Shown here: piece by piece, positions 1,575 to 57,996 of the stretch
How positions within the stretch are numbered: position 1 is the first letter of the stretch
Layout: every line of letters begins with the position of its first letter
Virus record (IMG/VR): IMGVR_UViG_3300008266_011401
Length of the DNA stretch: 64,000 bases
From: an uncultured virus (IMG/VR IMGVR_UViG_3300008266_011401)
Taxonomy: Duplodnaviria; Heunggongvirae; Uroviricota; Caudoviricetes
Strand: one strand, 5' to 3'
Translations under genes and position numbers: made by a program
Notes under the pieces: generated by a model
The model's input: only the letters and a program-made list of their open reading frames with translations
What the model was told of the DNA's origin: nothing
Database searches by the model: none

Positions 1575-2414
1575 TTACAATAAATGCTTTATTTGTTTTG
1601 CATCATAAAAGAAATCAGCAGTCCACTTACTCACACCCAACATTAATCGCTGACCCTGCGGGGTAAACTTACCCACCTTCCACAATTCATCAAGACACTT
1701 ATCGAATCGTGACCCCCATAGTTGAGCTTTGTATCGTGACTCACCATTGTCTGGTTCATATTTTAGATTATGAATATGTGTATGTGCCACCCCGAGAAAT
1801 GATAGGTAGGCGTGTAGTGAGGCAGACACAGGACGATTGGTAGGTTTGTTACCCACCGCAGGTTGTGCCGTGTTGGCGTAACTGTTTACAATAGACCAAC
1901 ACAATTCACTTTCGTGATTGAGGATAAACTCTTCTGTGGTAGGAAAGAATGTGTTTGCTCCCGTACCAAATCCCAACGCAACTAACTTCCAGTGCATCAG
2001 TTCGTGCACAAGATTAGCTAACGCAGCAACGGGATTGTACTGGTCAATTGAAGTCATAATTGCCCATGCCCCAGGATGACCAAATTCATTACCATCGTGT
2101 TGACCACTATAATTCTGACCCACTTCAAGATTAGGAACGATTACATCTACCAATCCACGGACATTATTATATCCCAACGGCCACACTTGCTGATAAATGT
2201 TAGCGAACGATTCAAAGTCTAAGGTTTTAATCGTCTGATAATCTTGTTCAGAACGAGGAACGATTGCAACCTTTCCATGAAACTTTGTCATAGACGACGG
2301 ATACTCAACAGGAACATATCCATTGTTCTTTTTAATCTTCGTGAATACATCTATGTCGTAACCATCTTCTTGTGGTTGTAAGATACGACTGTAATCAATA
2401 TCGTGAAATAACAT
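1575..2414 (-). CDS. aKG-HExxH-like peptide-modifying protein (paralog 1)
   Basis: LVHELMHWKL plus downstream RPVSASLHAYLSF, matching the HExxH...RP..LH.Y pattern; paralog of 47229..48083. Confidence 0.65.
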   Translation of the reverse strand: MLFHDIDYSRILQPQEDGYDIDVFTKIKKNNGYVPVEYPSSMTKFHGKVAIVPRSEQDYQTIKTLDFESFANIYQQVWPLGYNNVRGLVDVIVPNLEVGQNYSGQHDGNEFGHPGAWAIMTSIDQYNPVAALANLVHELMHWKLVALGFGTGANTFFPTTEEFILNHESELCWSIVNSYANTAQPAVGNKPTNRPVSASLHAYLSFLGVAHTHIHNLKYEPDNGESRYKAQLWGSRFDKCLDELWKVGKFTPQGQRLMLGVSKWTADFFYDAKQIKHLL

Positions 2415-8467: not shown

Positions 8468-9382
8468 CTATTTAACAAATATACATTGTTTATTACCTTT
8501 TTTAATTACCTTGTAAGGTGTTGCCGTTACATCAGTTAACGTATGTATGGTAAATACTGGTGTATCAATTGTGGCTACACCATATTCCGCGGTCCACGTT
8601 ATTTCCCAATCCAACATCTTACATAACATATTATATTCGTATCCATATCCATATTTCGTTGCAATACCAAGATTTTCCAATGCAATTCGTTTAGATTCGG
8701 TACAATTAAATGAACACGGTAAATGTGTAACTAACTTTAACCCAGCCCATCGAAGAAGATTACTAGCCCAGATTGGTGTTGTTTCAGGTAATTCGATAGC
8801 ATTATATTCACCAAGAATATTTTCTGCTTCAACATAATCGGATGTATTGGTAATTGTACAGGCTGCTTGTTGCCACGTTGTATCAATACCACCTCGTCGC
8901 ATCCACACTTCCGTAAAATGCTCTGAACAACAATGTGGGTATCCTAATCCACGACCAATGAGATATTCTCCCATAAATACATCACGTTCACGAGTTTTCC
9001 AGATGTCATTCCACTTGGAAACCAATTCTGGTTTGGTTACAATAGAACGCCATACAAATTGTGCCTGTCCATCCCACGGAAGTGAGTGATTACCGTAGTT
9101 ACCACTCATATTGTCTGCTTCTTTGTTTAGTAAAACAATCTCCAATCCATATTTACGAAATTCTGCACGTTTTTGTTCAACATCGGCGGGTCGAATAAAC
9201 AATAAATGTGCATCACGAGTTCCTTCAATTACCGAAAGATATTCAATGTGGTTGAATACGCCAACGATATTAGACATTAATTTTCTGTATTTATCCGCGT
9301 CTTTTTCATATTCTTGTTTAAAAGAAATATTAGTAAAGTTTGGACGTTCAATGTCTGTTTTTATAATCTGCATAATTACCAA
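8468..9382 (-). CDS. Cys-motif protein, DUF483-like
   Basis: GRGLGYPHCCSEHF and HLPCSFNC motifs. Confidence 0.5.
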   Translation of the reverse strand: MVIMQIIKTDIERPNFTNISFKQEYEKDADKYRKLMSNIVGVFNHIEYLSVIEGTRDAHLLFIRPADVEQKRAEFRKYGLEIVLLNKEADNMSGNYGNHSLPWDGQAQFVWRSIVTKPELVSKWNDIWKTRERDVFMGEYLIGRGLGYPHCCSEHFTEVWMRRGGIDTTWQQAACTITNTSDYVEAENILGEYNAIELPETTPIWASNLLRWAGLKLVTHLPCSFNCTESKRIALENLGIATKYGYGYEYNMLCKMLDWEITWTAEYGVATIDTPVFTIHTLTDVTATPYKVIKKGNKQCIFVK

Positions 9383-10395
9383 TTACCCAACTGTATGAGG
9401 TCTATTAATTTCGGAATAACTGTCTTTGGCGATGCTTGTTCTAATATTCTACGTTGTCCATTATAAGCAATATTATTTAGTCGCCATTTATTACTAGGTT
9501 TAATCCATTCTCTGTGTGCTTTAATTATCTGGTCGGCTGCTCTCATTGGATTGGAAGCCATACCAATAGACAGCCGTGAACCAACAGGTACGGCAATATA
9601 ATGATAGTTGGGTATTAAGTCAATAGCCAGATGATGCGTGTGTTCATATAACATAACGGGAAGTCCCAATGTCCACAATTCATGTTCACGGGAACACCAC
9701 TGATGTCCTGGTAGTCCTAGATTAATTGTATGCGTCGCTGCTTTTCTAAAAAAGTCTTGCATTGGAAGTTTTTTCTCTGTACTACCAACACAAACCTCAT
9801 CGGGATATTTGTATTCCAGTGCGGATATTACTTCTCTAATTTTAACCCCATCGTGTAAATAATCATCACGATTATTTCCAAAGAAAAATACTCTATCGTC
9901 CAATTGAGATGAATTTCTAATATCTTGAATTTCTTCAATCATAGATTCAACAACATTTGGATAATATGGGAAATAAACAAATGGTAGTAATTTCGTAAAA
10001 TCTAACCACGGATTTTCGTGATGATAACGTTCCAGCGAATACTGACCAAGTAACGACATGACATAACCTGGAAGTGTTTGTAGATACCGCGTCACAGATG
10101 GAGCGTCTTGTAAATCTACAATAACAAAATTTTTTGTTTCGTCGTTAACTATTATAAACCATAGGGAGTCAGGTATATACGGTCCATTTGAACTTACATT
10201 AATATCCACTTCTGGAATGTATAACACCTTATTGTCTGCACACAAATTAATATAGGTAATATTTGCTTCGTGTCCCATATCAAACAGTACAGTTTTTAAT
10301 TCATACGCCAGAAGTTCGGTGAAATATGTGTTGATACCAACTGGACTTGGATTATGTCCCTTATGTGCTGGATGATATATTGTGTAACTCGCCAT
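9376..10395 (-). CDS. Putative glycosyltransferase (GT-B-like)
   Basis: FFFG...R, L.LPG..CSRE.E...G.P, L.PN.HY, IA.NG pattern. Confidence 0.5.
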   Translation of the reverse strand: MASYTIYHPAHKGHNPSPVGINTYFTELLAYELKTVLFDMGHEANITYINLCADNKVLYIPEVDINVSSNGPYIPDSLWFIIVNDETKNFVIVDLQDAPSVTRYLQTLPGYVMSLLGQYSLERYHHENPWLDFTKLLPFVYFPYYPNVVESMIEEIQDIRNSSQLDDRVFFFGNNRDDYLHDGVKIREVISALEYKYPDEVCVGSTEKKLPMQDFFRKAATHTINLGLPGHQWCSREHELWTLGLPVMLYEHTHHLAIDLIPNYHYIAVPVGSRLSIGMASNPMRAADQIIKAHREWIKPSNKWRLNNIAYNGQRRILEQASPKTVIPKLIDLIQLGNW

Positions 10396-10403
10396 AAATA
10401 CCT

Positions 10404-10574
10404 TTATTGTTTTTCTTCTACATAGTCGTCATCATGCCCGAAATCCATTCCCATCGCCTCATAATACATCTGGACATTCCATTCACGGAGGTCATTCCGT
10501 GTAGAGTCCCGATGAGAAACTTGACGAGGAGTTGATTCTTGCACGAATTCCCGTAACATTTCGTTTTCGGACAT
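10404..10574 (-). CDS. Small acidic hypothetical protein (56 aa)
   Basis: Hand-translated MSENEMLREFVQES...; GGAGA RBS. Confidence 0.55.
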   Translation of the reverse strand: MSENEMLREFVQESTPRQVSHRDSTRNDLREWNVQMYYEAMGMDFGHDDDYVEEKQ

Positions 10575-10607
10575 CGTGTTTCTCCAAGTTTAATTGTGAA
10601 AGGGTAT

Positions 10608-10617
10608 TATAAATAGT
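10608..10617 (-). promoter_or_regulatory. Putative late promoter motif ACTATTTATA
   Basis: Identical intergenic copy, 34 nt upstream of an ATG. Confidence 0.5.
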
Positions 10618-18994: not shown

Positions 18995-20224
18995 TTAGAA
19001 AATTCTGTATTGTAAATCAGCGTTGACTGCTTTGTATCCCCACTTTTTAACAGCTGCGTCATATTCTGCTCCGTGGTTACCATCAATTGCTTGACGCATT
19101 GCCAATCCACCGGCGAGTGTACCCATTGGATGTCCATGCATTGCACCACCAACATTTGCCATCCAGTTATGACTATCAAGTAATCCGTTAATGTGCTGCA
19201 CCAATCCAGGATGCATTCCACAACTGAGTGCGGGGATAACATTGTAGTTCCACAACACCTTCAAGGCGTCTTGTAGTTCTGTGTCATCCTGATTCATATA
19301 CCCACCAATCATACCTGCGTGGATAGAGTCTGCACCAGACCACCCTGCAATCTTACAGATAACGGGCCAGTAGATATGATTCGGAGCACGACGGTCAGTG
19401 AAGAATTTATCCCCAGACTTCTGAAAGTGAATCCACAGATTAGGATTCTGTTTACGGATTGCACGATATGCACCCAACCCACTCCACACATTAATATGAA
19501 CACCCAATCCACCTTCATCCGAAACGAATTGTGCTCGTTGTAGTGCGTACGGACTGTCACCATTAATACAGAATGTGTACATTACATTCGGGGCGTTATT
19601 CGCCAACCAGTTGGTAATCAGTGGAACTCTCTTTGTCAACGGACAATGTGCCGGACTACCAAGGAGTTCATCTTCTTTAATAAAGTTTACACCACCATAT
19701 ACCATTTCCTTCACGGCTTCTAACAATACTTCTGGACTCATTCCAACCTTGGGTTTGATAATACCACCGAAGAATGGTTTGCCCTCGACACCATTAAACT
19801 TACGGAATCCATCAATACCATATGCTGGTTTCAATGTAAACTGTTGTTCAATATGTGCAGGTAGTGTTACGTCCAATACATGACATTGCTCAATTTCCAG
19901 AATGTCTACTTGACCACCGGCGATGTGGCAGAGGATTTGTGAGATACCATCTTCTTCTAAGTCTAGATTTTCTAGTGGAAATGCGATATCAACTTCACCG
20001 GAAAACTTCGACTTTAATTCATTTTCATCAGCGAGAACAAAACAACTGTGGTCACGAAACATCTGGTCAGTTTCCCATACACTACGATTGTTTGGATTAC
20101 CGATGCTTTGACCAATTGCCAAATTCCACGCGGCATCTCGTAGTGAAGTTTTCCCTGCAAGGAAGTACTTAACTATAAAATATTTGGATAAATCAATATC
20201 TCTTGTAAAAATATTTACGCTCAT
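18995..20224 (-). CDS. RuBisCO-like protein (form IV)
   Basis: GGIIKPKVG, GGVNFIKEDE, GADSIHAG, PALSCG, GGAMHGHP.G. Confidence 0.93.
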   Translation of the reverse strand: MSVNIFTRDIDLSKYFIVKYFLAGKTSLRDAAWNLAIGQSIGNPNNRSVWETDQMFRDHSCFVLADENELKSKFSGEVDIAFPLENLDLEEDGISQILCHIAGGQVDILEIEQCHVLDVTLPAHIEQQFTLKPAYGIDGFRKFNGVEGKPFFGGIIKPKVGMSPEVLLEAVKEMVYGGVNFIKEDELLGSPAHCPLTKRVPLITNWLANNAPNVMYTFCINGDSPYALQRAQFVSDEGGLGVHINVWSGLGAYRAIRKQNPNLWIHFQKSGDKFFTDRRAPNHIYWPVICKIAGWSGADSIHAGMIGGYMNQDDTELQDALKVLWNYNVIPALSCGMHPGLVQHINGLLDSHNWMANVGGAMHGHPMGTLAGGLAMRQAIDGNHGAEYDAAVKKWGYKAVNADLQYRIF

Positions 20225-24296: not shown

Positions 24297-24932
24297 TCAT
24301 CCCACTTGGAATGGTGGTTCCCATCCTGTTTCGTTACAATATTCAATGACTTCATCAATAGAAATCGTATTCAATGCCCATCGTTCTGCGTAGGGAATGA
24401 GGTCTGGGACTCGTGCCATACTACCATCATCATTCATAATCTCACAGATGATTGCAACTGGTTTCGTTCCAGCCATCATAGCAAGTTGAACAGATGCTTC
24501 GGTATGACCCTGCCGTTCCTTCAACAAACCAGGACGGGGACGGAGTGGAAACAAGTGACCTGGGTATGCAAGTTGTTCTGGTTTGGTATTTTCATCTAGT
24601 ACCAATCCAATCGTGACCATACGATCTTCTACACTTACACCAGTAGTGACACCATCACGTGCGTCAATACTGACGGTGAATGGAGTCGAAAACTTATCGT
24701 TATTGTTAGATGGACTCATAGGAATTTCTAAACGATCTAACATAAACTTTGGTGTAGGAATACACATGATACCTCGTGCTTCCTTTGCGATAAAAGCCAG
24801 TGTTTCTGGTGTTGCTTTTTCCGCTGCAATCATCAAGTCACCTTCATTTTCTCTATCGTAACTATCTACGACGATGATTGGTTTTCCGTTGCGGATATCT
24901 TCTAATACTGTTTTAATTTTTTCTGATAACAT
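24297..24932 (-). CDS. ribB: 3,4-dihydroxy-2-butanone 4-phosphate synthase
   Basis: DRENEGD, FTVSID, TGVS..DR, PGHLFPL, R.GHTEAS, ICEI. Confidence 0.96.
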   Translation of the reverse strand: MLSEKIKTVLEDIRNGKPIIVVDSYDRENEGDLMIAAEKATPETLAFIAKEARGIMCIPTPKFMLDRLEIPMSPSNNNDKFSTPFTVSIDARDGVTTGVSVEDRMVTIGLVLDENTKPEQLAYPGHLFPLRPRPGLLKERQGHTEASVQLAMMAGTKPVAIICEIMNDDGSMARVPDLIPYAERWALNTISIDEVIEYCNETGWEPPFQVG

Positions 24933-29975: not shown

Positions 29976-30359
29976 TTATTCCCCATACATATTCTCCGTT
30001 ACGTTTTCTTCTGTCTTTAACACAGTTTTCTTAATGAATACTTCACGTAACGTAGATATCTTCGTTAATAAATAGGTTCGATAGGGTCTGTCACCAACGA
30101 AATTTGAGTTTTTGAAACGGTCGTAAATTACCTGAGTATCAGTTTCATCACCAATCAATTTAAATATTTGACCAAGTTTTTCTGGTGTTAGAGAACCCAG
30201 TGACAAAGCGTGCATTTTACCTTCCCAATTGGGATTGAGTACGAGTGCATATTTCTGCTCATTATCGTAGGTAAACTGCACCACTTTGCCAGTAGTCAAA
30301 TCTTTTCGAGAAACGAAAGTACGAACACCTAATGTACCTTTATACCCTTCTATTGCCAT
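29976..30359 (-). CDS. Hypothetical protein
   Basis: 127-aa coupled ORF. Confidence 0.55.
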   Translation of the reverse strand: MAIEGYKGTLGVRTFVSRKDLTTGKVVQFTYDNEQKYALVLNPNWEGKMHALSLGSLTPEKLGQIFKLIGDETDTQVIYDRFKNSNFVGDRPYRTYLLTKISTLREVFIKKTVLKTEENVTENMYGE

Positions 30360-31666
30360 TAGTTAATCTTCTTTAATGTTGGAAGAACCAATTTAGTTTC
30401 AACGGAAAATTGTGGAACATATTTGTCTAACAACTCAACTGTTCTGTTAAAAATAGTTTGATACGAGAACTTCTTAACATTTTGTTTTGCTAACAACTGT
30501 GCCTTCTTTTTAAAATTACTGTAATTCTTAAATACGGCGTACATTGCGTTTGCTGATTGGTTCATATCAGGAGCGAACCACGTAGACTCCCGAATCAATA
30601 CACCGTCCCACACAGAACTTTCGTGGATAGGTTTGAGTTCACCACCAATTAGTAATGAATTGTCTTTATCCAAGAAATCAAGTTGACCACTCCATCCAGA
30701 TGCGATTACGGGTTTGCCACTAATTGATGCTTCAAGTAATGGTCTACCAAACCCTTCACCCTTGGTTAAACTTACGTGTGCTTTTACCTTTGAGTGGTTA
30801 TATAAAGAATTCATTTCTTTGTCTGTTAACTCACCATGCAATAAATAAATATTCGGCATGCTCTGTCCAACGTTCAAAGTAACAGATTTCTTGATTTGTT
30901 CTATTTTCTTTAATATATCTTCTCTGTCCAAGATAGAAAATCCAGCACTACTAGTTTTTAAAATAAGCGCAGGCTTTTCTTTTTCTGGAACTTGTCGGAA
31001 TGTTTCAAGGAATATTTTCACCAACAGTGCAACATTCTTACGGTCCTCTCCAAATTCACCACGGAGCCAGTGACCAACGAAAAGATAACAGAACTTCTCT
31101 GGGATGCTATCCAATGTTTCTCGTATTTTTGGCTCTAAATTAAAATCATATTCGATTTTTTTAAATATGTTATTGTCAATACAATTGTGTAATACTTCAA
31201 TTGGTTTGGTGACTGCTAGTTCACCAATGATATTACCTTGTTGATTTTGCTGTGAGTACTTTGAGAAATGAAAAACATTCTTTGAGTGTTCGGAAATAGT
31301 CAGTACTAAATCCATTTTATTACATGCTTGTATCCATTCAGCAGAAGCCACGGTGGTTTCAATGCCGGCGGTTATACCGATATTGTACTTTCCTAACGGT
31401 TCAAATTCTGTTGGGATGGTAATTGTAACATACAATGATGGTTGTGGTAATTGTCCACCACGAATGATTCTATCCAAAATCATTTTGTCCTTTGGATTAG
31501 TTTCATCCAGTGCATTCATAGGAGTATCACCCCACGGTACACTGTGCACCTTCACATCAAACTTATCCCATTCAATGATGTGACGGATAATGTCTCTACT
31601 CATATCACCATAACCAGAACGAGTCTGGCATGGTGCTCTAACTATACATAACGGTTTGCCTGTCAT
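30359..31666 (-). CDS. Glycosyltransferase family 4-like (GT-B)
   Basis: RKN, GEGFGRPLLEA, WSGQLDF. Confidence 0.88.
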   Translation of the reverse strand: MTGKPLCIVRAPCQTRSGYGDMSRDIIRHIIEWDKFDVKVHSVPWGDTPMNALDETNPKDKMILDRIIRGGQLPQPSLYVTITIPTEFEPLGKYNIGITAGIETTVASAEWIQACNKMDLVLTISEHSKNVFHFSKYSQQNQQGNIIGELAVTKPIEVLHNCIDNNIFKKIEYDFNLEPKIRETLDSIPEKFCYLFVGHWLRGEFGEDRKNVALLVKIFLETFRQVPEKEKPALILKTSSAGFSILDREDILKKIEQIKKSVTLNVGQSMPNIYLLHGELTDKEMNSLYNHSKVKAHVSLTKGEGFGRPLLEASISGKPVIASGWSGQLDFLDKDNSLLIGGELKPIHESSVWDGVLIRESTWFAPDMNQSANAMYAVFKNYSNFKKKAQLLAKQNVKKFSYQTIFNRTVELLDKYVPQFSVETKLVLPTLKKIN

Positions 31667-31667
31667 A

Positions 31668-33068
31668 TTATGCCTTCACCAAAGTAAAACGTTCCCGTGG
31701 GGTCCAATTATCCCACGCATTTTCCATATGTTCGATAAATAATTCACACATACGTTCTGCCGTAAATTGTCCAGCTCCAAGTGCGTATTGACGACCCAAC
31801 TCACCACGGCGTTTACGTTCCTCACGCGACATCTTATACACTTCCATTATCTTCTCCGCTGCTTCTTCCCACGAACAACGGTCATCAAAAATGTACGGGG
31901 TCAACGGAGAACCTTGTAAAGAACGACTTACTGGAAATAATGGGAATGCCCATTCACCGTGATTCTTGAAACGTCCATCGTGATTACTACCCCAATCATA
32001 ATTGAAATCACGTTCAGGGTCAAGGTACTCACCTTCATCATTTGTGAATCCACACTGGTCTTGCAATCCACCCGTGACATTAACAATGATTGGTGTACCA
32101 GCAACTAGACTTTCACACGTACCCAAACCAAAACCTTCGTTACTAGACATATTAATGGTAACGTCTGCGATGTTATACAGAATGTTGATATGCTTCGATT
32201 CAATGCGTTCGTTTGAGAAAATAACATACTTTTCTAATTCTGGCATTACGTCACGAATCACCACAGGTAAGTCAGTACCGTGTTCATCAACGGGTTGTGT
32301 ATGTAATACAAGACGGCACTTTGAACGTTCTTCTTCTGGTAGCTTTTTCATAAACGTGTTAAATGCCAACAGAATATCCGATGTCATCTTTCTACGAATA
32401 TTTCTACTATTGTAGAACACTACATATTTAACGTCTTGACCGTTAAACAATCGTTCACGAACTTCCAAGAGTTCTTTGTCATCTTCTGGTAGTGGATGGA
32501 ACTTCTTTGTATCAATTCCATGTGGAATGTAGGATAGTGACCACGGAGCACGTGGTTCCTTTCTTGATACGTGCTTTACGATATTGTAGGTTTGTTTACT
32601 AATACATCCAATCCAATCATCGGAACGATAATAATTTTCATTATAGAATGGATACGGAAGGTCATCCCAAATAGCGTAGAAGAACATAGGAATCTTTTGA
32701 CGAATCTCATGCTCAATCTGATATAACCAAATCCAATATCTTGGGTCTGTGAAATGGAGAATAGCATCTGGCTTTTCTAATTCTATTAACTGACGAATCA
32801 ATCTACTGTCACCGTATCCATTATAGGGAACAATCTTAACACTAGCGTCAGTCAATCCAACTTCATTATTAATTGCGTCGGACATATCAATCATTTTACC
32901 GGCCTCAGGATGAGAAACCGCTGCACCTACCTGTACCCAATTAAATCTATGCGAAGTTCCTTCAATTATTTCACGGGACATAACACCAACACCTGATGTT
33001 ACTCGCATATCGTCTGAGAGGAATAAAATCTTCTTACGTTGTTCTTTTGGAATATAACCGTGTTTCAT
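31668..33068 (-). CDS. Glycosyltransferase family 4-like (GT-B)
   Basis: PHGID, RNIRRK, NEGFGL..CES, TGGLQDQ. Confidence 0.88.
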   Translation of the reverse strand: MKHGYIPKEQRKKILFLSDDMRVTSGVGVMSREIIEGTSHRFNWVQVGAAVSHPEAGKMIDMSDAINNEVGLTDASVKIVPYNGYGDSRLIRQLIELEKPDAILHFTDPRYWIWLYQIEHEIRQKIPMFFYAIWDDLPYPFYNENYYRSDDWIGCISKQTYNIVKHVSRKEPRAPWSLSYIPHGIDTKKFHPLPEDDKELLEVRERLFNGQDVKYVVFYNSRNIRRKMTSDILLAFNTFMKKLPEEERSKCRLVLHTQPVDEHGTDLPVVIRDVMPELEKYVIFSNERIESKHINILYNIADVTINMSSNEGFGLGTCESLVAGTPIIVNVTGGLQDQCGFTNDEGEYLDPERDFNYDWGSNHDGRFKNHGEWAFPLFPVSRSLQGSPLTPYIFDDRCSWEEAAEKIMEVYKMSREERKRRGELGRQYALGAGQFTAERMCELFIEHMENAWDNWTPRERFTLVKA

Positions 33069-33092: not shown

Positions 33093-34190
33093 TTAAAATG
33101 CTATAATTTCACTGCCACCACCACCTCCACCGCCACCACCACTATCTCCGTGTTGTATGTAGGTATCTGTGTGTGGAATTATTTCCGTATCGGAATGAGG
33201 AATGTCTGAGTGTGGTACATATGTGTCATTATGAACTGGTGTATCCGTATGCTGTGTGTCGGTGTGTTGCACCTGTGTATCATTATGCACCGTATCGTTG
33301 TGTGATGTATCTGCGTGTGTTGTGTCGTTGTGTGTGGTATCCGCGTGTTGAACAACAACGGTATCTAAATGCCCAGCTGCTCCATCAGCACCAGGCGTCC
33401 CTGCTGCACCGGCAGGTCCTGGTGGACCTGGTGGACCTGGGGTCATAGCCCTATCCAACGCTGCTTGTGCTGATTGTGCCGCTGCAGCTGCGGAAGCCGC
33501 TGCAGCTTGAGCCGTTGCAAGGGCTTGTTGTGCTAATGCACGTACAGGAGCAACTTGTGATTCTACGTACGCTACAATTCTACGCCAATACGGACCATCA
33601 AGATATTCATAAATTGGTGTACCGACATCTTCTGCAAATATTCTGTTACCTTTTTTTGCCGTAGAATCTTCACGGGTACGTTGTGCTTGTGGAACGAATT
33701 TCGCATTTAAATGCGTTTCAATCATATCATTCAATTCGTTATTTGTTCTGAATAATTGACCCGTTGCCTGTGTTAACGTAGGTGTTTGTGGTGGTGTAAC
33801 CGTTACCGGAGTAGTATCCGTTACGGGTTGTGGTATTTCTTGTGCAGGTGTAAACGATTGTGGTGGATAGAAATTGGCACCAATACCCTTGTCAGGCAAC
33901 AATCGTAGGTATACACCACCTGGAGCGATTTCATCATAATCACCAGTGAACAATCCACTTCTGTATGCATTGAATAGTTCCTCTGCATCAACATAGTCTG
34001 GATTAATGAACACCCAACCACCCGAAGTTGTTGCGGTACTTAATACGTTGGCTGGTAAATTATTTAATTTACGAGTTTCCTCTGCACGTTCTGGTGTAAT
34101 TACTATACGGCTGTATTTGCCAGAATTAAATTCGGCTACATCCCCGGCTCCAGCCGCAAAATATATATCTTGTTTTGTTGGTATAGCCAT
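33093..34190 (-). CDS. Collagen-like protein with C-terminal His-x-Asp repeats
   Basis: Ala-rich helix, GPPGPPGPAGAAGTPGADGAAG, 13 HxD motifs, poly-Gly tail. Confidence 0.8.
   Translation of the reverse strand: MAIPTKQDIYFAAGAGDVAEFNSGKYSRIVITPERAEETRKLNNLPANVLSTATTSGGWVFINPDYVDAEELFNAYRSGLFTGDYDEIAPGGVYLRLLPDKGIGANFYPPQSFTPAQEIPQPVTDTTPVTVTPPQTPTLTQATGQLFRTNNELNDMIETHLNAKFVPQAQRTREDSTAKKGNRIFAEDVGTPIYEYLDGPYWRRIVAYVESQVAPVRALAQQALATAQAAAASAAAAAQSAQAALDRAMTPGPPGPPGPAGAAGTPGADGAAGHLDTVVVQHADTTHNDTTHADTSHNDTVHNDTQVQHTDTQHTDTPVHNDTYVPHSDIPHSDTEIIPHTDTYIQHGDSGGGGGGGGGSEIIAF
33144..33371 (-). repeat. Coding repeat of 13 HxD(T) motifs
   Basis: HLD,HAD,HND,HAD,HND,HND,HTD,HTD,HND,HSD,HSD,HTD,HGD. 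Confidence 0.9.
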
Positions 34191-34199
34191 ATAATTCTC

Positions 34200-34364
34200 T
34201 TATAAAGTGATACTACCGGACATACTAGAAGAAATAAAATTAGACCATAACTTTTCTGTAATGGTACTTGCAACAAACCCGTTAAGTTTACAAAACTCAC
34301 GAATGTGTTGATTTATTTCTTTCGTAATTTGCACGGTAGTATATGAATATTTATCTTTTCTCAT
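34200..34364 (-). CDS. Small ribbon-helix-helix-like protein (54 aa)
   Basis: Hand-translated MRKDKYSYTTVQITKEINQHIREFCKLNG... Confidence 0.5.
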   Translation of the reverse strand: MRKDKYSYTTVQITKEINQHIREFCKLNGFVASTITEKLWSNFISSSMSGSITL

Positions 34365-34387: not shown

Positions 34388-34397
34388 TATAAATAGT
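34388..34397 (-). promoter_or_regulatory. Putative late promoter motif ACTATTTATA
   Basis: Identical intergenic copy, 24 nt upstream of an ATG. Confidence 0.55.
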
Positions 34398-40086: not shown

Positions 40087-40765
40087 TGGTTAGCTCTCGT
40101 TTAATTTCTTCTATTACATCACGAAGTTTGTGGGCTTCAATGAAGGGTGTATAATCAATATACGTTGGATTTGAAATTTTGTCAACATCTTCTTGTGTAA
40201 AATCAATCCCCAAACGTTCATTTAACTCTGGTAGATATTCCGTAGATGGTTTCTGCATCATTTCGTGGTCAACCATACTAACGTGTAATCCAGACTTTAA
40301 TAAATGTGGTTTAATTACATCGTAATAATATAGAATAGTTTCCAAAATATACTTTAATAAACTTCTGTCAAGTGGAATATTTTCGGGTGTTTCCAATTGC
40401 TCAGTTAAAAACTCTACCAGTGCTGCGTGTTCACCATTACCATTTTCCTGTGCATACGACAATAGTAACCAACTTGCAGCTTGTTGCGTGATATCCAATC
40501 TTTCGGCCAAAACAATTCTATCAAATGCATGCCACGGAAATGTCTGGTAATCTAATATATTTTTATAACTTGTCAATGTGGTACTGGTAATCTTAACAGA
40601 AAAATCATCCGTGTTCGTCATCATGTCTAATTTTTCTTCCACGGATTTTACAATCGGACCTTCGGAAAACAATTCCGAATAATCTGTTAAATTAAACTTT
40701 GTAGAGAAAAGTGTTCCCAACATACTTGAACACGTACGTGGGGTCGAAACAATAGCTACTCTCAT
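40019..40765 (-). CDS. Sulfotransferase-like protein
   Basis: STPRTCSS 5'-PSB loop, ELF, L.R.D...Q..S. Confidence 0.6.
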   Translation of the reverse strand: MRVAIVSTPRTCSSMLGTLFSTKFNLTDYSELFSEGPIVKSVEEKLDMMTNTDDFSVKITSTTLTSYKNILDYQTFPWHAFDRIVLAERLDITQQAASWLLLSYAQENGNGEHAALVEFLTEQLETPENIPLDRSLLKYILETILYYYDVIKPHLLKSGLHVSMVDHEMMQKPSTEYLPELNERLGIDFTQEDVDKISNPTYIDYTPFIEAHKLRDVIEEIKRELTNATEEETSTDEGNESIENEGTV

Positions 40766-41589
40766 ACATTCTCCTTCAATTCTACTTTCTGAGGTTTCCA
40801 CCCATTATCTACACCTTGAATAACTTCGATGTTTTCCACAACTCCATCGGTAACAGTGACCTTTTGAATCAACTGTACGTATTCTTTAATATCGTTATAT
40901 GGTATGACTGGAATTTTTAAGTTTTTCATCATACGCTTCTTTTCCTTCTTGTCACAGAGAAAATAAATATACCGATGTTTGGCTGTTTCCTCTTTTCTCC
41001 AAAAAGTACGACCAATTCGTTTTGCTAGATTCTCCACGGATTTATTACCAAACTTTGCCCCCACTGTTCGTGAGTGCATCCACAATCCTCCTTCCTCTAA
41101 GAGAAGTGAGAAATCAGGCATCAACTTGGAATATCCACATCCCTGATATATCCAATTCGTTGCTCGGTAAATACCACCCGTGTGTGATTGTTCTGGGTCT
41201 GCGTAACTGACCAATACTTTTACTCGTGAATCATTATCTCTCATCCAGTGGAAGGATTGTGCAATAGAATAACTTTCAATATTCTTTCCATACCCATCAA
41301 GAATAACCAATCTGGTGAGTTCTAATACTTCGTCTAGTTCTAATCCGTCTACAATACTATCAACCGTTCTATTACTTACAGGATGCCCATAAGTCATACA
41401 ACCAATCAACTGTTCGTTTTCACCGGCAAAGAACATATGTTCAGTTTCCTCACGATAAAAAATCCCTAGGGCATATCGTGTGGAACTGAACTTATGTGTG
41501 TAATGGTGCTTTTCGATAAAATCCCGTGCCACAGCTTTACTAATTTCTCTAACTGAGACACGGGACTTATCAACAAACGTTTGTTCCAT
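40762..41589 (-). CDS. Mom-family (GNAT-fold) DNA modification protein
   Basis: FIEKHHY, G..TYG.P, LELTRL, ES, LVSYADP.Q.H.G.IYRATNW.Y.G. Confidence 0.78.
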   Translation of the reverse strand: MEQTFVDKSRVSVREISKAVARDFIEKHHYTHKFSSTRYALGIFYREETEHMFFAGENEQLIGCMTYGHPVSNRTVDSIVDGLELDEVLELTRLVILDGYGKNIESYSIAQSFHWMRDNDSRVKVLVSYADPEQSHTGGIYRATNWIYQGCGYSKLMPDFSLLLEEGGLWMHSRTVGAKFGNKSVENLAKRIGRTFWRKEETAKHRYIYFLCDKKEKKRMMKNLKIPVIPYNDIKEYVQLIQKVTVTDGVVENIEVIQGVDNGWKPQKVELKENV

Positions 41590-42505: not shown

Positions 42506-43420
42506 TCAACCATTTAAAATGTTATACAACGCTGCTACAAAATTAATTTCCTTATCTACTACAAAACTATCACGATACTGTCCCTCTGCGATTTCTCGGA
42601 TAGTATGTGGTACTTTTGCCGGTGCGTAATCAGTTACCTTATCAAAGAGTAATCTATACAGTTCAGCAAAATCCTTTACATTACTATCTGCCACAATCTG
42701 TCTTATTTCATTAACCTTATCTTTCAATGGAAGATTACTCATCAAGACATCTAACACCTTCAACTTGTAATCCCCAGCGATTACTTCCTCAACGTTGAGT
42801 TCCAGTCTACCGCCACTTGTTTGATTTTGCGAAGTATTAATAATCCGGCGAATGTCTGGGTAATATGCGTTAACCAGGGTTGCGATAACAGACTTATCAA
42901 ATCCAACATGTTCCTTCTCCAAAATTTTCATTAAGTGAACTGCCACCTCTTTTTTAGATGGTGGGGTCAACTTGAATACTTGTGCTCTACTAATCAGAGG
43001 ATCAATAATACGTTCCACATAATTACAGGTCAAGATGAAACGAGTATTCTTACTGAACACTTCCATCAAGTTACGAAGTGCTGCCTGTGCCTGTGGGGTA
43101 ATGTAATCCGCCTCGTCGAGTACGATAATCTTCAAGGGTTTAAAACTCATTGTTGCTGCGAAGTTCTTAATCTTAGTACGAATCGTATCTACGGAGTTTT
43201 CATCCGATGCATTGATAAACAAGTAATCACAATCAATATTCTTGACCAGAATCTTCGCTGCGGTGGTCTTACCAGTGCCAGCTGTACCGCAGAAGAGTAG
43301 ATGCGGAACATCTTGCTCTGCGATAAATTGAGTTAACTTGTTCTTTACGTGTTCGTTACCAATGTAATTCTCCAACGTATCAGGCCGGTAGCGTTCTGCC
43401 CAGATTGTATTATCAATCAT
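42506..43420 (-). CDS. Clamp loader ATPase (RFC small subunit/T4 gp44-like)
   Basis: WAERYRP, GTAGTGKT, NASD, LDEAD, AQAALR, SR. Confidence 0.95.
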   Translation of the reverse strand: MIDNTIWAERYRPDTLENYIGNEHVKNKLTQFIAEQDVPHLLFCGTAGTGKTTAAKILVKNIDCDYLFINASDENSVDTIRTKIKNFAATMSFKPLKIIVLDEADYITPQAQAALRNLMEVFSKNTRFILTCNYVERIIDPLISRAQVFKLTPPSKKEVAVHLMKILEKEHVGFDKSVIATLVNAYYPDIRRIINTSQNQTSGGRLELNVEEVIAGDYKLKVLDVLMSNLPLKDKVNEIRQIVADSNVKDFAELYRLLFDKVTDYAPAKVPHTIREIAEGQYRDSFVVDKEINFVAALYNILNG

Positions 43421-44856
43421 TATCTTCCAACCTCATTCAAGTAAGTGTTCTTGGTTTCATCCCAAGTCATCTGAACCATTTTACGATAATATAATGTTTC
43501 ACCATTTAAACGATTATTATCAAATAGATTCAAATATCTTTTGATTGCTTTATCTCTCCACCATAACATAACACTCTCAACATCATTTGTCAACTTCTGT
43601 GATAATATTAGTTTATCTTCGTTGATTTCTCCACGAAGAAATTCACGAGTATTTTCATAGACAGGTGCGAAGTATACACCACGTTGAAATCCATGCTCAT
43701 AATCACTTGCTTTAATACCTAATATCTTAAACAACAATAACATAGTCTGTTGCTTTGGTCCCGTTGGTGGGAATTTGTGTCGTGATTTTTTATCGTATAC
43801 TTCACCAGATGTATGAACAGAATAATTGTCTGCTTCTAATTTAGCAATCAATTCTTCTTTGGTGGTTGCAGTGATACGGATAAACTCGTCCGCACATACC
43901 CATTCTTCACCTTCTTGTGTAATATCTGCGACATACGGAATTGTTGCTTTATCAAATCCTTCCGAATGATTAACTTTTAGATAGTTTGCCCACTCTTGGA
44001 AAATATCATCGTCTGGTTTCAATGCAATCTTACCGGCGGTAACTCCTAATTCTTTCCAGAATGGAATTCGTTGGTACATACTGTGTGAACCATACAACGA
44101 TGTGGTGGTTAATCCCACAAGGATATTTCCAAATTTAGAATTCCAGTAATCACGGACAGACTTCGTTGCCAACAACGATGCAACCAATTTACCACCAAGG
44201 AAATTATACCCAAACGGTTGTGTTGGTACGATGGTGGTTCCGATTGATGTTGAGTTGAGTAATCCATCTTCAAATTTATTCTCCTTAGTCCATCCAATCC
44301 ATTTATCACGAACACCAACAGAGGCAACATCAGAACCCAATGCACAAACGCCAAGGTACTTACCAGAGTTCTTGTCACGAATAAGAATACGAACAAGACG
44401 ACCTGGATTTGCCGTAAACTCAAACGTAGAACACATAACACGAAGATATTTCCAATCACTAAATAACGAAGTATTATCGGGTTCAACAATAACAACTTCT
44501 GGATCTAATTTATTGATTTCTTCAACAGTTAAATCTTTGTTGAGAATATCTGTTGGCCGCCATATTTTGGCTTCAACAATTTGTGCAAGCTGAATATCTT
44601 TTGTATTATTAAAATCCGTTGTTAGTTCTTTCCACTTCTTATACAACGTATTTTCTTGCACCGATTGATTTTTCAACATACCCATATGTTGAACAAACTT
44701 ATTTTTTTCTACATCAAAATCAAACGATGTACCTTCACCACTGAAAAAATCAGTGGCACTGGTGTTCAAGACAACACCACCCTTCGGCGGTTTCTTCGCA
44801 GAAGGGGGTGTATACTGTGCTTGCTTTGGAGTATCGTTGAACTCAAAGAATGACAT
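43420..44856 (-). CDS. DUF4338/DruA-like protein
   Basis: PGR, LG...LGS, RDKWIGW, PFGYNFLGGKL, TTSLYG..S.Y. Confidence 0.7.
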   Translation of the reverse strand: MSFFEFNDTPKQAQYTPPSAKKPPKGGVVLNTSATDFFSGEGTSFDFDVEKNKFVQHMGMLKNQSVQENTLYKKWKELTTDFNNTKDIQLAQIVEAKIWRPTDILNKDLTVEEINKLDPEVVIVEPDNTSLFSDWKYLRVMCSTFEFTANPGRLVRILIRDKNSGKYLGVCALGSDVASVGVRDKWIGWTKENKFEDGLLNSTSIGTTIVPTQPFGYNFLGGKLVASLLATKSVRDYWNSKFGNILVGLTTTSLYGSHSMYQRIPFWKELGVTAGKIALKPDDDIFQEWANYLKVNHSEGFDKATIPYVADITQEGEEWVCADEFIRITATTKEELIAKLEADNYSVHTSGEVYDKKSRHKFPPTGPKQQTMLLLFKILGIKASDYEHGFQRGVYFAPVYENTREFLRGEINEDKLILSQKLTNDVESVMLWWRDKAIKRYLNLFDNNRLNGETLYYRKMVQMTWDETKNTYLNEVGR

Positions 44857-45595: not shown

Positions 45596-46264
45596 TTAAT
45601 TAAAACCGAACCAATCACCGTAATGTGATGGGCGTACCGTACCAAAATCTGCACTTATACTTGCTGACAATCGTTTACTTCTTGGAATACACTTATGATA
45701 CCTTCTGTATGGAATATACAACACATCCCCAGGATGTAAAGTGTACACCAAATCTTTTTTTAATAAATCATCATTTAAACAAATAACTTCATTTGGATTT
45801 CCGTTCCAAGTTTCTGCGTATACTGTCCAATCGGAAATTCCATCTAATTGTAATATTAACACATATTGGGAATCTGCGTGTGCGTGGAATGACTTGGAAG
45901 TATTTTTCAATCCACCGTAAATATTTGTACTGACATATCTATTTTGTATCTGTGAAAATATATTTGATGCGTAGAATAGTCCTTTGGTATACCGTTCCAT
46001 TGCATTTAATATAAATGATTTACCATCATAAATTTCAGAAGCTATAGTTTTAGTAGGTGTACTACTTGTTTCTGTACTTCTGTATGTTTCTATTTTTGAT
46101 TTATTATCACCAATAATAACAATATCGGAATTGTGGTAATTATCATTTATATAACTTTCTACATTACTCCACGTAAATATAGATTTGGGTGTACAAGAAT
46201 TGGTAAGAACAAATGTACGTTCTTTATCTTCAATAATTTTTTCAAAAACTACATCGTTTACCAT
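45596..46264 (-). CDS. JmjC/cupin 2OG oxygenase (RoxA-like)
   Basis: HAD...LQLDG...W...L.PGDVLYIP...H. Confidence 0.82.
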   Translation of the reverse strand: MVNDVVFEKIIEDKERTFVLTNSCTPKSIFTWSNVESYINDNYHNSDIVIIGDNKSKIETYRSTETSSTPTKTIASEIYDGKSFILNAMERYTKGLFYASNIFSQIQNRYVSTNIYGGLKNTSKSFHAHADSQYVLILQLDGISDWTVYAETWNGNPNEVICLNDDLLKKDLVYTLHPGDVLYIPYRRYHKCIPRSKRLSASISADFGTVRPSHYGDWFGFN

Positions 46265-46623: not shown

Positions 46624-47229
46624 TTACTCCTTTACAAAAGCAGTTTCTTCTGGATTAATTCCTATACTTTCTACATAATATATTTTGTGATTCACTTTTA
46701 ATTTTATTGGTAATTTCCAATTAGTGAAGCTATCTTCCCACCATCGTACCCGATTGTTTGGCATGGCTGCGAGATACCCCTCTTCCGACACCAACATATT
46801 AAAACTTTTATCTTGTTGTGGTGCGTTGGAATAACCATCATCATAAAATTCGATTGCCCATCCCAATCCACGGCCGGAAAATTTGTTACCGTGCGAATCT
46901 ATCCACTCAGCACTTAATCCTTTGGAAAACTTCATATCTATAATACCAAATTCTGTACCGAAACATCCCCACACTTGATGAGTATGTAAATTTTTTGCAG
47001 GAGGTATTTGTTTGGTGGTATCTTGTCCAATAACAAGTCCGTGAATGGGTACACCACGATATTGTGCACCATTTTCCAATAACACAGAAAATGTCAACGC
47101 CTGTGTGGGTCTAACCGATACTGCATGAATAATACAATTATCTAGTCCAGTGTCCGTTCCATTGGTAATAAATTCACGACGAACTTTACCATATAAGTGA
47201 TACGGAAGAGATGCGGTCAACGAATACAT
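46624..47229 (-). CDS. Hypothetical protein
   Basis: 201-aa coupled ORF; GA...P.H, PNNR. Confidence 0.6.
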   Translation of the reverse strand: MYSLTASLPYHLYGKVRREFITNGTDTGLDNCIIHAVSVRPTQALTFSVLLENGAQYRGVPIHGLVIGQDTTKQIPPAKNLHTHQVWGCFGTEFGIIDMKFSKGLSAEWIDSHGNKFSGRGLGWAIEFYDDGYSNAPQQDKSFNMLVSEEGYLAAMPNNRVRWWEDSFTNWKLPIKLKVNHKIYYVESIGINPEETAFVKE

Positions 47230-48083
47230 TACATTAATTTGGATAATGTTTTAAGTGTGTCTTTATATTCTTCTTGATAATCACGAGTCCATCGGTACAA
47301 TCCAAGAAGTAATTGTGCTCCCTTTTCCGTGGTATGTGCCTTTAACATCAAAGCCTCCAAGGATTCGTTCAATCTGTCTCCCCACTTCTTCGCGTAACCC
47401 AACCAATGGTAATGTGCTTTAAAATCGTGTTGTACGAAACGTAGAGATACTTCAGCTTCACCTAAGAATGAGGCATATGCATGAAGTGACGCACTAATGG
47501 GACGGCCTGATGCTTTGTGTCCAACAGCAGCTTGTGCTGTGTCATCATAACTATTCACAATAGAGTGATGTAGTTCTTCAACTGGATTTAAGACAAATTC
47601 ATTATTGTGATGTAACATATCGAATACTTCTGGTGTACATCCCTTTCCAAATCCTAGTGCTGTAAATTTCCAATGAATCATTTCGTGATACATGTTTCGA
47701 ACCGTAACCACTGCATCACCAGGAAGAGGAGCCATAACAATCCAAGAATTTGGATATTCAACTGCCGCCAACTGACATGAGAATTCGTTCCTATCGGCTG
47801 CAAGTTCGATTGGAGTGAATACATCCACTAAATTTGTTATGGTATTCCATATAGTAGGTACTGCTCGTGGAGCAATTTGTGCCAATGTATTTAAGTGAGA
47901 ATCGTTATTGGCAAATGAGGTGGGTAATGTAGATGGATTAAAAGAATGAACATACATACCAGAAACTTTCTTATATGGAAATTCTTTTTTAACAAATCCC
48001 TTTTGCAACTTAATTTGTTTAAACACCTCTACATCATAACCATCGGGTTGTGCTTGGATAACCCTACTATAATCTATTGTCAT
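47229..48083 (-). CDS. aKG-HExxH-like peptide-modifying protein (paralog 2)
   Basis: YHEMIHWKF plus RPISASLHAYASF. Confidence 0.65.
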   Translation of the reverse strand: MTIDYSRVIQAQPDGYDVEVFKQIKLQKGFVKKEFPYKKVSGMYVHSFNPSTLPTSFANNDSHLNTLAQIAPRAVPTIWNTITNLVDVFTPIELAADRNEFSCQLAAVEYPNSWIVMAPLPGDAVVTVRNMYHEMIHWKFTALGFGKGCTPEVFDMLHHNNEFVLNPVEELHHSIVNSYDDTAQAAVGHKASGRPISASLHAYASFLGEAEVSLRFVQHDFKAHYHWLGYAKKWGDRLNESLEALMLKAHTTEKGAQLLLGLYRWTRDYQEEYKDTLKTLSKLM

Positions 48084-48454
48084 AAAACCTCTTCCCATGC
48101 ATACTGGGCGTTTAATTTAAAGGTACCGACATATCCACCCCAGAACGCTTGAGCAGGATTTACCAGTGATATAAAAGCAGATCCATTTTGCTTCTTATAT
48201 AGATAGTAAGTATCCCCAATATTCGGCTTAAAACTTATTGAACTTTCATACAACATTTTATTGATAGAATATTCTCGTACCAACTTTTCATAATCCCGTA
48301 CAACAACATCATACCGTTCTTTAAAATAATGTTTAAACGTGGGAGACACTTCTGCTTTCCAAGTATCAACATCAACTGGATGAATTGTTGCTGGTGCGTT
48401 AGGTGTGATTCCATACGTTAATGCGTTTGGATTTTTATTTTCATCATCGTTCAT
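48080..48454 (-). CDS. DUF2452-like protein
   Basis: F.P.IG.TYYLY, G.FKL....W. Confidence 0.55.
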   Translation of the reverse strand: MNDDENKNPNALTYGITPNAPATIHPVDVDTWKAEVSPTFKHYFKERYDVVVRDYEKLVREYSINKMLYESSISFKPNIGDTYYLYKKQNGSAFISLVNPAQAFWGGYVGTFKLNAQYAWEEVL

Positions 48455-49041
48455 AATGCGTAGGTATAGATGTGTTTTGGTTTGGTTTTTATTACCTGTA
48501 CGCCTGGGTCACCACGTTTGTATCTGTTATTGATTTCCACCCCGTATGGTCTATCCACCATAGTAAGTGTGCGAACGTGGAACGATTTTCCATCTACCAT
48601 TAATGTAGTTCCTGGCGCAGTCATACCTTCGTATTTAAAGTTTGCTGCTTTATAAATAATACCTTTGTGTCCTTGCTGTTCGTCTGCATAGCTGACTACG
48701 AATTTCCACTCACTATTTTTTCGTAACCATTTTAATGTCCTACCTACAAAAAAACTTTCAGCGTTCTTTGGCGTGTCATCAATTAAACATAATCTACGAA
48801 GTTCTAAACATTTGTCAGGATCGGTGGGATAATATTTCTGTGCCGCAGAAGCACCTGCTGGACGGGTATAAACGCAAACACCCACCAATTCTGGCAGGAA
48901 TGTTCCTTCACGAAATAATCCAAATGTTTCTTTTTCTTGTATATTCACATAATCTGAATAATGCCAACGACGAAGAAAATTTCTAACTGTTTCCGAAAAA
49001 CTGATATGCTCTACAAAATAGTTTTCTAATGCCATAATCAC
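48451..49041 (-). CDS. Mom-family (GNAT-fold) DNA modification protein
   Basis: WHY, LELRRL, PKNAES.F, VSYAD..QGH.G.IYKAANF.Y.G. Confidence 0.8.
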   Translation of the reverse strand: MIMALENYFVEHISFSETVRNFLRRWHYSDYVNIQEKETFGLFREGTFLPELVGVCVYTRPAGASAAQKYYPTDPDKCLELRRLCLIDDTPKNAESFFVGRTLKWLRKNSEWKFVVSYADEQQGHKGIIYKAANFKYEGMTAPGTTLMVDGKSFHVRTLTMVDRPYGVEINNRYKRGDPGVQVIKTKPKHIYTYAL

Positions 49042-57613: not shown

Positions 57614-57996
57614 GACCCCTCATCTAATTTAATATGTTTCTTTATTTTTGATTGAACAATTTTCGGATTATTTCTAATGTCATTTTCCCATAAACATAAA
57701 AATTTAAATCCCATCTGCTCAAATTTTTTCTTTCGTTCATTATCACGTTGCCAAATTTCTTCGGCTGTCTTTTTCTTACCTTTATTAAAATAGGAAGAAG
57801 TATATTGCTGCGGGTTACAGTGCCAAAAGTCACCATAACATTCCACGATATATTTTTTATTTACCAAAAAATCAACGGTGTATCTATCCACCGAAACTTG
57901 TTCTTCAAAAGGAAGATTAAGTCTTGTTAATATTGTAGAAACCGTTTGTTCAATTTTATTACTTGTACACTTAGTTTCTTTTTTCTTACGACTCAT
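57610..57996 (-). CDS. Vsr/DUF559-like endonuclease
   Basis: E, VDF, ECYGDFWH, D..R, G...L.LWE. Confidence 0.8.
   Translation of the reverse strand: MSRKKKETKCTSNKIEQTVSTILTRLNLPFEEQVSVDRYTVDFLVNKKYIVECYGDFWHCNPQQYTSSYFNKGKKKTAEEIWQRDNERKKKFEQMGFKFLCLWENDIRNNPKIVQSKIKKHIKLDEGS

Follow-up and report, generated by a model that had tools for sequence, protein, structure and literature searches.

Within a 64,000-nucleotide (nt) window of DNA from an uncultured virus of the Caudoviricetes (IMG/VR record IMGVR_UViG_3300008266_011401), we identified a gene at positions 33093-34190 of the minus strand that encodes a 365-residue protein (P0001) ending in a dense array of 13 His-x-Asp units. The window, by which we mean the whole stretch analyzed, represents most of a 78,110-bp viral contig, referred to below as the 78-kb genome. 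Arrays following the same His-x-Asp/Asn rule are encoded next to a radical S-adenosylmethionine (SAM) enzyme with a SPASM-type motif in 20 of 24 homologous viral loci, nearly always just upstream of the enzyme gene and on the same strand, and one such enzyme lies on a contig that is nearly identical to this genome. We tentatively favor a model in which P0001 is a trimeric late fiber protein whose array would be modified in trans by this radical SAM/SPASM-DUF483 machinery.

Architecture and conservation of the array protein

The open reading frame (ORF) encodes a succession of distinct segments, all on the minus strand. An N-terminal globular domain without a Pfam or PHROG family match (residues 1-110; 33861..34190) is followed by a linker rich in Pro and Thr (residues 111-148; 33747..33860), which is evident from the sequence and has the lowest predicted local distance difference test (pLDDT) values of the structure model, 26-30. 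Profile searches then delineate a conserved domain of ~65 residues (residues 149-214; 33549..33746) with the pattern ..KKGN..FAEDVG.PIYEYLD..YW.RIV.YVE. Next come an Ala-rich helix (residues 215-251; 33438..33548), which AlphaFold2 (AF2) models as a helix over residues 200-249 and which forms a coiled coil in a trimer model, and eight uninterrupted Gly-X-Y triplets of collagen type (residues 252-275, GPPGPPGPAGAAGTPGADGAAGHL; 33366..33437), which fall within the modeled trimer interface. The 13 His-x-Asp units occupy residues 274-349 (33144..33371); 11 of them read HxDT, and they are spaced five to eight residues apart. A run of nine glycines, a short hydrophobic C-terminus (SEIIAF) and the stop codon complete the gene (33093..33143). 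The Ala-rich helix, Gly-X-Y stretch, 13 HxD(T) units and poly-Gly tail listed in the original prediction, a note made from the DNA letters before this analysis, are all present in this 365-residue frame.

The array obeys a strict rule. All 14 His residues of the protein stand in an H-x-[DN] context, and Thr occupies position X4 in 11 of these 14 units. When we shuffled the 76-residue tail 200,000 times, the shuffled sequences contained on average 2.2 HxD motifs and at most nine, and none reached 13. Across the 78-kb genome, the array gene is the only one of 516 stop-to-stop frames of at least 50 residues to hold more than six H-x-[DN] motifs. Neither Pfam nor NCBIfam contains a family for the protein, and PHROGs yields only weak matches to two families of unknown function (phrog_25888 and phrog_9328) over the Ala-rich and collagen segment. 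The eight Gly-X-Y triplets give no match to Pfam Collagen (PF01391) at E ≤ 0.01.

A search of 5.8 billion proteins returned five relatives. Across the resulting six homologues, which extend down to 45-49% identity, 11 of the 13 units keep both His and Asp without exception, eight keep Thr, and no unit has an invariant X2. The relatives end in a Gly run followed by ..TFF or ..TFI. The N-terminal domain is confined to P0001 and its closest homologues, P0002 and P0003; it is absent from P0004, P0005 and P0006, and in two of these three the Ala-rich helix is missing as well.

Among 1.84 billion representative sequences, a profile matched 105 at E ≤ 0.001 (19 at 1e-10 and three at 1e-30), and these fall into two kinds. 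The first kind comprises about 15 short proteins that carry the conserved domain (residues 149-214) at their extreme N-terminus; in the sequences printed, the domain continues into heptad-like, Ser/Thr-rich low-complexity or collagen segments. Judging from this layout, the conserved domain is probably the attachment or anchor end of a fiber. The second kind comprises HxDxx arrays within long proteins. Among 27 proteins that we scanned, three (P0010, P0027 and P0028) match tape-measure PHROGs and a fourth (P0038) matches tail-fiber and collagen PHROGs. The array proteins P0039 and P0046 have twin-arginine-like signal sequences (..RRALL..GW..). A metagenome scan for the genomic context of divergent members recovered only copies that are 98-100% identical (four loci), and scans with P0006 or P0020 as single queries yielded no locus.

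Array genes accompany a radical SAM cassette

The original prediction looked to SPASM-type radical SAM enzymes elsewhere in the genome as partners of the array. The 78-kb genome, which CheckV estimates to be 41% complete, contains no radical SAM gene, but the near-identical contig G002 (104,871 bp) has one. Over five sampled stretches totaling 29.7 kb, G002 is 99.75-99.97% identical to the genome; the two are collinear, shifted throughout by 4,982 bp, and G002 encodes an identical array protein. Its radical SAM protein (437 residues) is encoded ~7 kb past the point where the 78-kb genome ends, ~51 kb from the array gene, in a tail-fiber module. For the co-occurrence of the array-protein family with a radical SAM gene, G002 is the only contig long enough to judge.

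The G002 enzyme matches the radical SAM family PF04055 with 62.2 bits and carries both the motif CNLSCPYC and a CX2CX5CX3C motif of SPASM type (CQGCRFFLTCKAHC). Its best NCBIfam rows are anaerobic sulfatase maturase, DynA, the cyclophane-forming YhhB, AmcB, GrrM and FxsB. In a phmmer search of the PDB, the nearest proteins were anSME (6e-11) and the radical SAM domain of ChlB (8e-8).

The surrounding cassette, which spans L019:8249-15000 and L020:283-4656, encodes a 490-residue DUF483-like protein fused to a methyltransferase and His-x-Asp/Asn array proteins of 256, 386 and 520 residues. The largest of these (L020:2347-3909) has a collagen segment followed by the array, the same order as in P0001, and this order recurs beside the radical SAM gene at L030:3501-5183. 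The 256-residue protein starts directly with its array, which suggests that the enzyme may recognize the repeats as such and that a dedicated leader is unnecessary, and makes action in trans plausible. Also in the cassette are three collagen-like proteins, some with Cys-rich C-termini, and the wider module includes two large fiber proteins, a T4_baseplate-family gene and a tape-measure-like gene. A separate motif, HADH[VT]D..G.Y, occurs twice in a 118-residue ORF (L019:9740-10096), which is present in 14 of the 24 radical SAM loci, and once in a C-terminal extension of the radical SAM protein itself (L019:10117-11430).

We assembled 24 loci in IMG/VR that encode homologues of this enzyme (42-100% identity) and scored a frame as an array if it held at least six H-x-[DN] motifs at a density above 0.04. 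The four loci that lack such a frame are all truncated by contig ends: the upstream sequence available in L036, L038 and L045 does not exceed 1.4 kb, and in L043 the partner gene begins at base 41. A DUF483-like partner is present in 21 of the 24 loci. Many of the loci are closely related, and they form about seven groups by radical SAM identity, six of which have an array. As controls, we applied the same definition to the 516 frames of the 78-kb genome and to L002, L004 and L021, where no frame passed; the passes came from the P0004 homologue in L005 and from the G002 cassette arrays in L020. P0001 itself, with a density of 0.036, lies just below the threshold. When we searched five radical SAM-bearing contigs with a profile of the P0001 family, it matched only arrays adjacent to the radical SAM gene, in two of the five. 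The original prediction had expected further HxD-repeat proteins and their co-occurrence with such enzymes across related phages; both expectations are supported by the at least three array proteins beside the G002 enzyme and by the 20 linked loci, and the interpretation as a whole has partial support.

The cassette arrays and the P0001 array follow the same rule at their first and third positions. The fraction of His residues in an H-x-[DN] context is 31/31, 30/32, 20/20, 40/40 and 97/99 in cassette proteins, and ranges from 12/12 to 15/15 in the P0001 family.

A predicted trimer precedes the array

The AF2 model of the P0001 monomer is too poor (pLDDT 38.7) for fold comparison. A model of three copies of residues 200-365 gave an ipSAE interface score of 0.54 (median of three runs), compared to 0.20 for the best control. 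At least 54% of contacts agreed between runs, and the partner pLDDT was at least 54. The confident interface spans residues 205-274, comprising the coiled coil and collagen segment. Of solved pairs, 20 of 30 attain the ipSAE mark, as does one of 23 single chains; this calibration is approximate here because we used our own alignment and a ligand. Solved trimers include similar coiled coils and collagen, and the score may reflect this likeness. For residues 1-215, a search of the ESM Atlas gave a best score of 0.85, below the meaningful level, and the phage-fiber families found at 0.82 serve as leads only.

Two stand-alone HExxH proteins and a DUF483-like paralogue

The window encodes two paralogous proteins with an HExxH motif. 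The first (1575..2414, minus strand; 279 residues, HELMH) scores 35.9 bits against TIGR04267/IPR026337, the ‘aKG-HExxH-type peptide beta-hydroxylase’ family, whose cut-off is 40 bits. The second (47229..48098, minus strand; 289 residues, HEMIH) is 37% identical to the first (E 2e-52) and scores 23.9 bits. An AF2 model of the first, built from a 21-row alignment out of 72 available homologues, has a pLDDT of 91.3. All five Foldseek matches to this model at E ≤ 0.001 are either chains of 8s5f, the HExxH domain of ChlB (best E 5.2e-5, TM score 0.50/0.43), or 22ob, SjiH (E 1.5e-4); the five have TM scores of 0.48-0.55 on the query. Searches of PDB sequences with this protein, by phmmer and with the 21-row profile, returned nothing relevant.

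The relevance that the original prediction ascribed to HExxH proteins holds for the fold, which is of ChlB type in the first protein, and not for family membership or proximity: both proteins fall short of the TIGR04267 cut-off, and their genes lie 14-32 kb from the array gene. TIGR04267 matches occur in three of four near-identical or related contigs. Overall, the HExxH genes appear to be genes of the viral lineage; they share a genome with the arrays, and a functional tie to them is only a possibility.

A paralogue of the cassette’s DUF483-like partner is also encoded in the window, 24 kb from the array gene (8468..9373, minus strand). It is 34% identical to residues 1-272 of the partner (E 3e-51), matches PF04467 at E 0.0011, and shares CC and C..C motifs with the G002 partner. 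It belongs to a second operon (8468-10617) under the promoter-like motif described below, together with a 56-residue ORF, a 339-residue ORF without a family, and a 750-residue vWA/CobT-like protein with the sequence HEGSH. This operon could be a second maturation set without a radical SAM enzyme. Beside the first HExxH gene, an ORF without a family match (2415-2990) has the pattern HxD...H (HEHQD ... WLHG), which we take to resemble that of a 2-oxoglutarate (2OG)-Fe(II) oxygenase. A JmjC_2 gene and a 2OG-FeII_Oxy_5 gene (45596-46264 and 57993-58565) are further candidate protein hydroxylases.

A proposed model for array maturation in trans

In the model that we favor, the conserved domain (residues 149-214) would anchor the protein, the Ala-rich coiled coil and eight collagen triplets would set three chains in register, and the distal end would display 13 His-x-Asp(-Thr) units per chain. 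The array would belong to the His-x-Asp/Asn class that is encoded, within the tail-fiber module, beside the radical SAM/SPASM enzyme and its methyltransferase-fused DUF483-like partner, and the same radical SAM enzyme would act on it in trans. By joining the ring of each His to the β-carbon of the Asp at X3 (-2 Da for each unit), it would act as triceptide synthases do. The two stand-alone aKG-HExxH proteins might afterwards β-hydroxylate the Asp or the His. For HTK, HAA and HNR, the formation of His-X2-X3 cyclophanes has been established, and substrates with multiple motifs are known (PMC11499958). The aKG-HExxH domain of ChlB is reported to β-hydroxylate Asp and His in a precursor whose cyclophanes are already in place (PMC12636437), and other aKG-HExxH members are reported to hydroxylate Gln. 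The designation of P0001 as a virion fiber protein draws on its architecture, on a trimer model that covers residues 205-274 only, and on a promoter-like motif shared with a virion structural gene.

A number of observations weigh against this model. First, the link between enzyme and proposed substrate is indirect. The array gene adjoins neither the radical SAM gene nor the DUF483-like cassette genes; it is an outlying copy, situated in a glycan-synthesis region outside the fiber and structural module. None of the 24 radical SAM loci encodes a relative of residues 1-273. Moreover, the 148-kb contig G005 (72% complete) has the cassette and no relative of the conserved domain, so the cassette does not need the array protein. 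The HExxH genes lie 32 kb and 14 kb from the array gene and adjoin neither an array nor a radical SAM gene; TIGR04267 is matched in none of five further radical SAM contigs, and our own HExxH profile in two of the five.

Second, the arrays differ in detail. X3 is always Asp in P0001, as opposed to a mixture of Asp and Asn in the cassette arrays; X4 is Thr rather than Ile, Asn or Ala; and units are spaced by five to eight residues rather than seven or nine. A three-residue cyclophane also leaves the conserved Thr unexplained. With 365 residues that include folded domains, a coiled coil and collagen triplets, the protein does not have the layout of a short leader-core precursor.

Third, the G002 radical SAM protein reaches no NCBIfam family cut-off: its best score is 76 bits against a cut-off of 349, and the corresponding values are 68/445 for YhhB, 64/425 for AmcB, 55/310 for GrrM, 50/370 for FxsB and 39/450 for XyeB. 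The authors of a report on a radical SAM and DUF483 module in Thermus phages suggest DNA modification, in a passage that does not mention His-x-Asp arrays (10.1101/2024.08.14.607894). Finally, the trimer model, in which three Fe ions were included, leaves the array unplaced, with no confident contacts beyond residue 278.

Alternative roles for the array

The strongest competitor, which we consider possible though doubtful, is an unmodified metal-binding array. Three His and three Asp residues per level of the trimer would hold one ion, and up to 13 ions would stiffen the distal fiber. The invariance of His and Asp alongside a variable X2 is consistent with this proposal, as is the modeled three-fold register of the chains just before the array. 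Precedent comes from T4 gp37, in which HxH pairs hold seven iron ions, and from HxH motifs in marine phage fibers (PMC11705849). P0001, however, contains no HxH, and its His residues are never closer than five positions apart. The irregular spacing of units (5, 6, 7 or 8) is likewise unfavorable, as is the lack of confident contacts beyond residue 278 in the trimer model with three Fe ions; that model is uninformative on the structure of the array and on metal sites. The recurrent pairing of arrays of the same grammar with a radical SAM gene, in 20 of 24 loci, would be needless for a purely structural motif.

The genes around the array suggest another role, namely that the Thr of each HxDT unit, or the Asn-Asp-Thr of HNDT units, is glycosylated by a co-transcribed pair of GT4-type glycosyltransferases using sugars from a downstream cluster, which would yield a glycan-coated fiber. 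The first glycosyltransferase gene (31668..33068, minus strand; PF00534 3.8e-9, phrog_2170 1.5e-21) starts 24 nt downstream of the array gene, and the second follows it (30359..31666, minus strand; PF00534 2.8e-7, phrog_2170 5.6e-27). Upstream, a conserved 54-residue ORF (34200..34364, minus strand) that matches no Pfam, PHROG or NCBIfam family ends 9 nt before the ATG of the array gene. A promoter-like motif, ACTATTTATA, lies on the sense strand 23 nt upstream of this ORF (34388..34397, minus strand), and scanning from the motif to position 29765 with a consensus revealed no terminator-like site on the minus strand. The order of 54-residue ORF, array gene and two GT4 genes is preserved in L004 and L005 (64% identical homologue), and some 18 kb of sugar-nucleotide and transferase genes lie downstream of the array gene. 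The predominance of Thr at X4 also fits an acceptor role, and in mycobacteriophages the C-termini of capsid and tail-tube proteins are reportedly glycosylated by phage-encoded enzymes (PMC12619734, citing Freeman 2023).

We nonetheless regard glycosylation as unlikely to account for the array. Because L004 and L005 come from related phages, their shared gene order is perhaps inherited rather than selected, and clusters of this type may instead have host surface polysaccharide or DNA as their target. Glycosylation would also leave the invariant His and Asp unexplained. It is compatible with modification of the same array in trans by the radical SAM enzyme.

The promoter-like motif occurs four times in the window, always on the sense strand, where 0.28 sites are expected; none of 100 shuffles reached four. 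Each site lies 23-33 nt upstream of an ATG, and one precedes a phrog_1645 virion structural gene (4374-5744). The original prediction had placed the array gene under this motif and just ahead of glycosyltransferase genes; the motif in fact precedes the 54-residue ORF, and the glycosyltransferase genes are where it put them. As a candidate T4-type late promoter we considered TATAAATA, which in the T4 orientation occurs at chance level (eight matches, 7.0 expected) and at the array gene lies on the antisense strand; on both grounds, we do not call the ACTATTTATA motif a T4-type late promoter. The peptide of the 54-residue ORF recurs as the C-terminal part of P0007 in L005, a more distant relative, where, at L005:7110-7853, a GIY-YIG-like homing-endonuclease sequence is fused in frame upstream of it.

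A less probable reading is that the tail is a flexible low-complexity spacer without specific chemistry, perhaps in a protein that functions in the infected cell outside the virion. The absence of a family match and of a confident array fold would agree with this, as would the position of the gene outside the structural module and the variation in unit number (12 in the L004 homologue, 13 here). A spacer is hard to reconcile with His and Asp residues that stay fixed in 11 of 13 units among homologues whose overall identity falls to 45-49%, or with an array in which every His follows one rule and which none of 200,000 shuffles could match in its count.

Least probable is a siderophore-like fiber tip, in which enzymes would bring about a form of the ‘Ferrojan horse’: the radical SAM enzyme would staple the units, the HExxH enzymes would then add β-hydroxyls to Asp and His, and 39 rigid, chelating β-hydroxy-Asp/His sites per trimer would bind Fe(III) and allow docking of the virion onto a TonB-dependent iron receptor. 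The genome encodes a 1046-residue ORF with CarboxypepD_reg and outer-membrane β-barrel/TonB-dependent-receptor domains (59637-62777), an unusual cargo for a phage, and has an Fe-S assembly gene (58575-58940).

Genomic setting

The 78-kb genome has a GC content of 38.5%, and 82 of its 84 called ORFs lie on one strand. It encodes a T4-like replication set (family B polymerase, clamp loader, clamp, UvsX, single-stranded DNA-binding protein and DnaB-like helicase), and baseplate pieces are located at one end. Searches of INPHARED phages, by tblastn with the array protein and by megablast with 12 kb of sequence, gave no match. The glycan-synthesis cluster includes a RuBisCO-large-chain-like ORF (18995-20224; PF00016, 2.9e-33) and a DHBP synthase gene (24297-24932; 1.2e-73). 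The replication genes are interspersed with genes for two proteins of the Mom family and one DruA-like protein (PF14236, 2.9e-23), at 40762-41589, 48451-49035 and 43420-44856.

Comparison with known systems

To our knowledge, small peptide natural products are the only setting in which radical SAM cyclophane chemistry and aKG-HExxH hydroxylation are known. Should the model of modification in trans prove correct, phages would be applying them to large fiber proteins, a form of virion maturation that would be new. Fiber stiffness, resistance to proteases, metal binding and receptor recognition would all be affected, and the enzymes involved would be natural examples that accept substrates of protein size without a leader. 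An array gene that lies far from the cassette and is co-transcribed with glycosyltransferases, in a phage with two stand-alone HExxH enzymes, can reveal whether modification occurs in trans and whether more than one modification system acts on a single protein. In our literature searches we found no paper that joins radical SAM enzymes, bacteriophages and triceptides, and none that describes a phage cassette of array, radical SAM/SPASM enzyme and DUF483-like protein.

The only paper we found that combines DUF483, radical SAM and phages is the Thermus phage report (PMC11437467/10.1101/2024.08.14.607894). It describes an ‘rSAM module’ of phages Cumys and phiMa, found in phages and prophages, in which a radical SAM gene and a gene with a DUF483 domain are joined by a third gene. 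Fusions of DUF483 to a methyltransferase are noted there, as in G002; we draw this likeness from the description only.

Two other systems resemble P0001 in part. The T4 gp37 needle, like the fiber proposed for P0001, is trimeric and has regular, conserved His-containing triplets; these are HxH in gp37 and HxD here, P0001 has no predicted iron-binding fold, and gp37 has no link to a radical SAM enzyme. Virion glycosylation in mycobacteriophages (Freeman 2023, as cited in PMC12619734) shares the placement of phage glycosyltransferase genes beside the gene for a structural protein with a modified C-terminal part; the host group and the proteins are different.

Close parallels exist with triceptide systems (HtkB with HTK, HaaB with HAA, YhhB with HNR, and ChlB). 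In these, as in the phage system, aromatic-X2-X3 motifs with His at the aromatic position are repeated and a radical SAM/SPASM enzyme is present, and their synthases are among the nearest named relatives of the phage enzyme. They differ in that the candidate phage substrate is a 365-residue multidomain protein, modeled as a trimer, rather than a short leader-core peptide. In the phage, moreover, Asp takes the X3 position, ~51 kb separate the enzyme gene from the array gene, the radical SAM protein falls below family cut-offs, and the partner is DUF483-like.

The phage HExxH proteins, in turn, share both motif and fold with the aKG-HExxH hydroxylases (ChlB, 8s5f; SjiH, 22ob; PflC/PosC; BpmH). 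They differ from these in being stand-alone proteins present as two paralogues, below the TIGR04267 cut-off and without a sequence match in the PDB. The HExxH domain of ChlB is reported to target Asp and His (PMC12636437), the same two residues that are conserved in the phage array.

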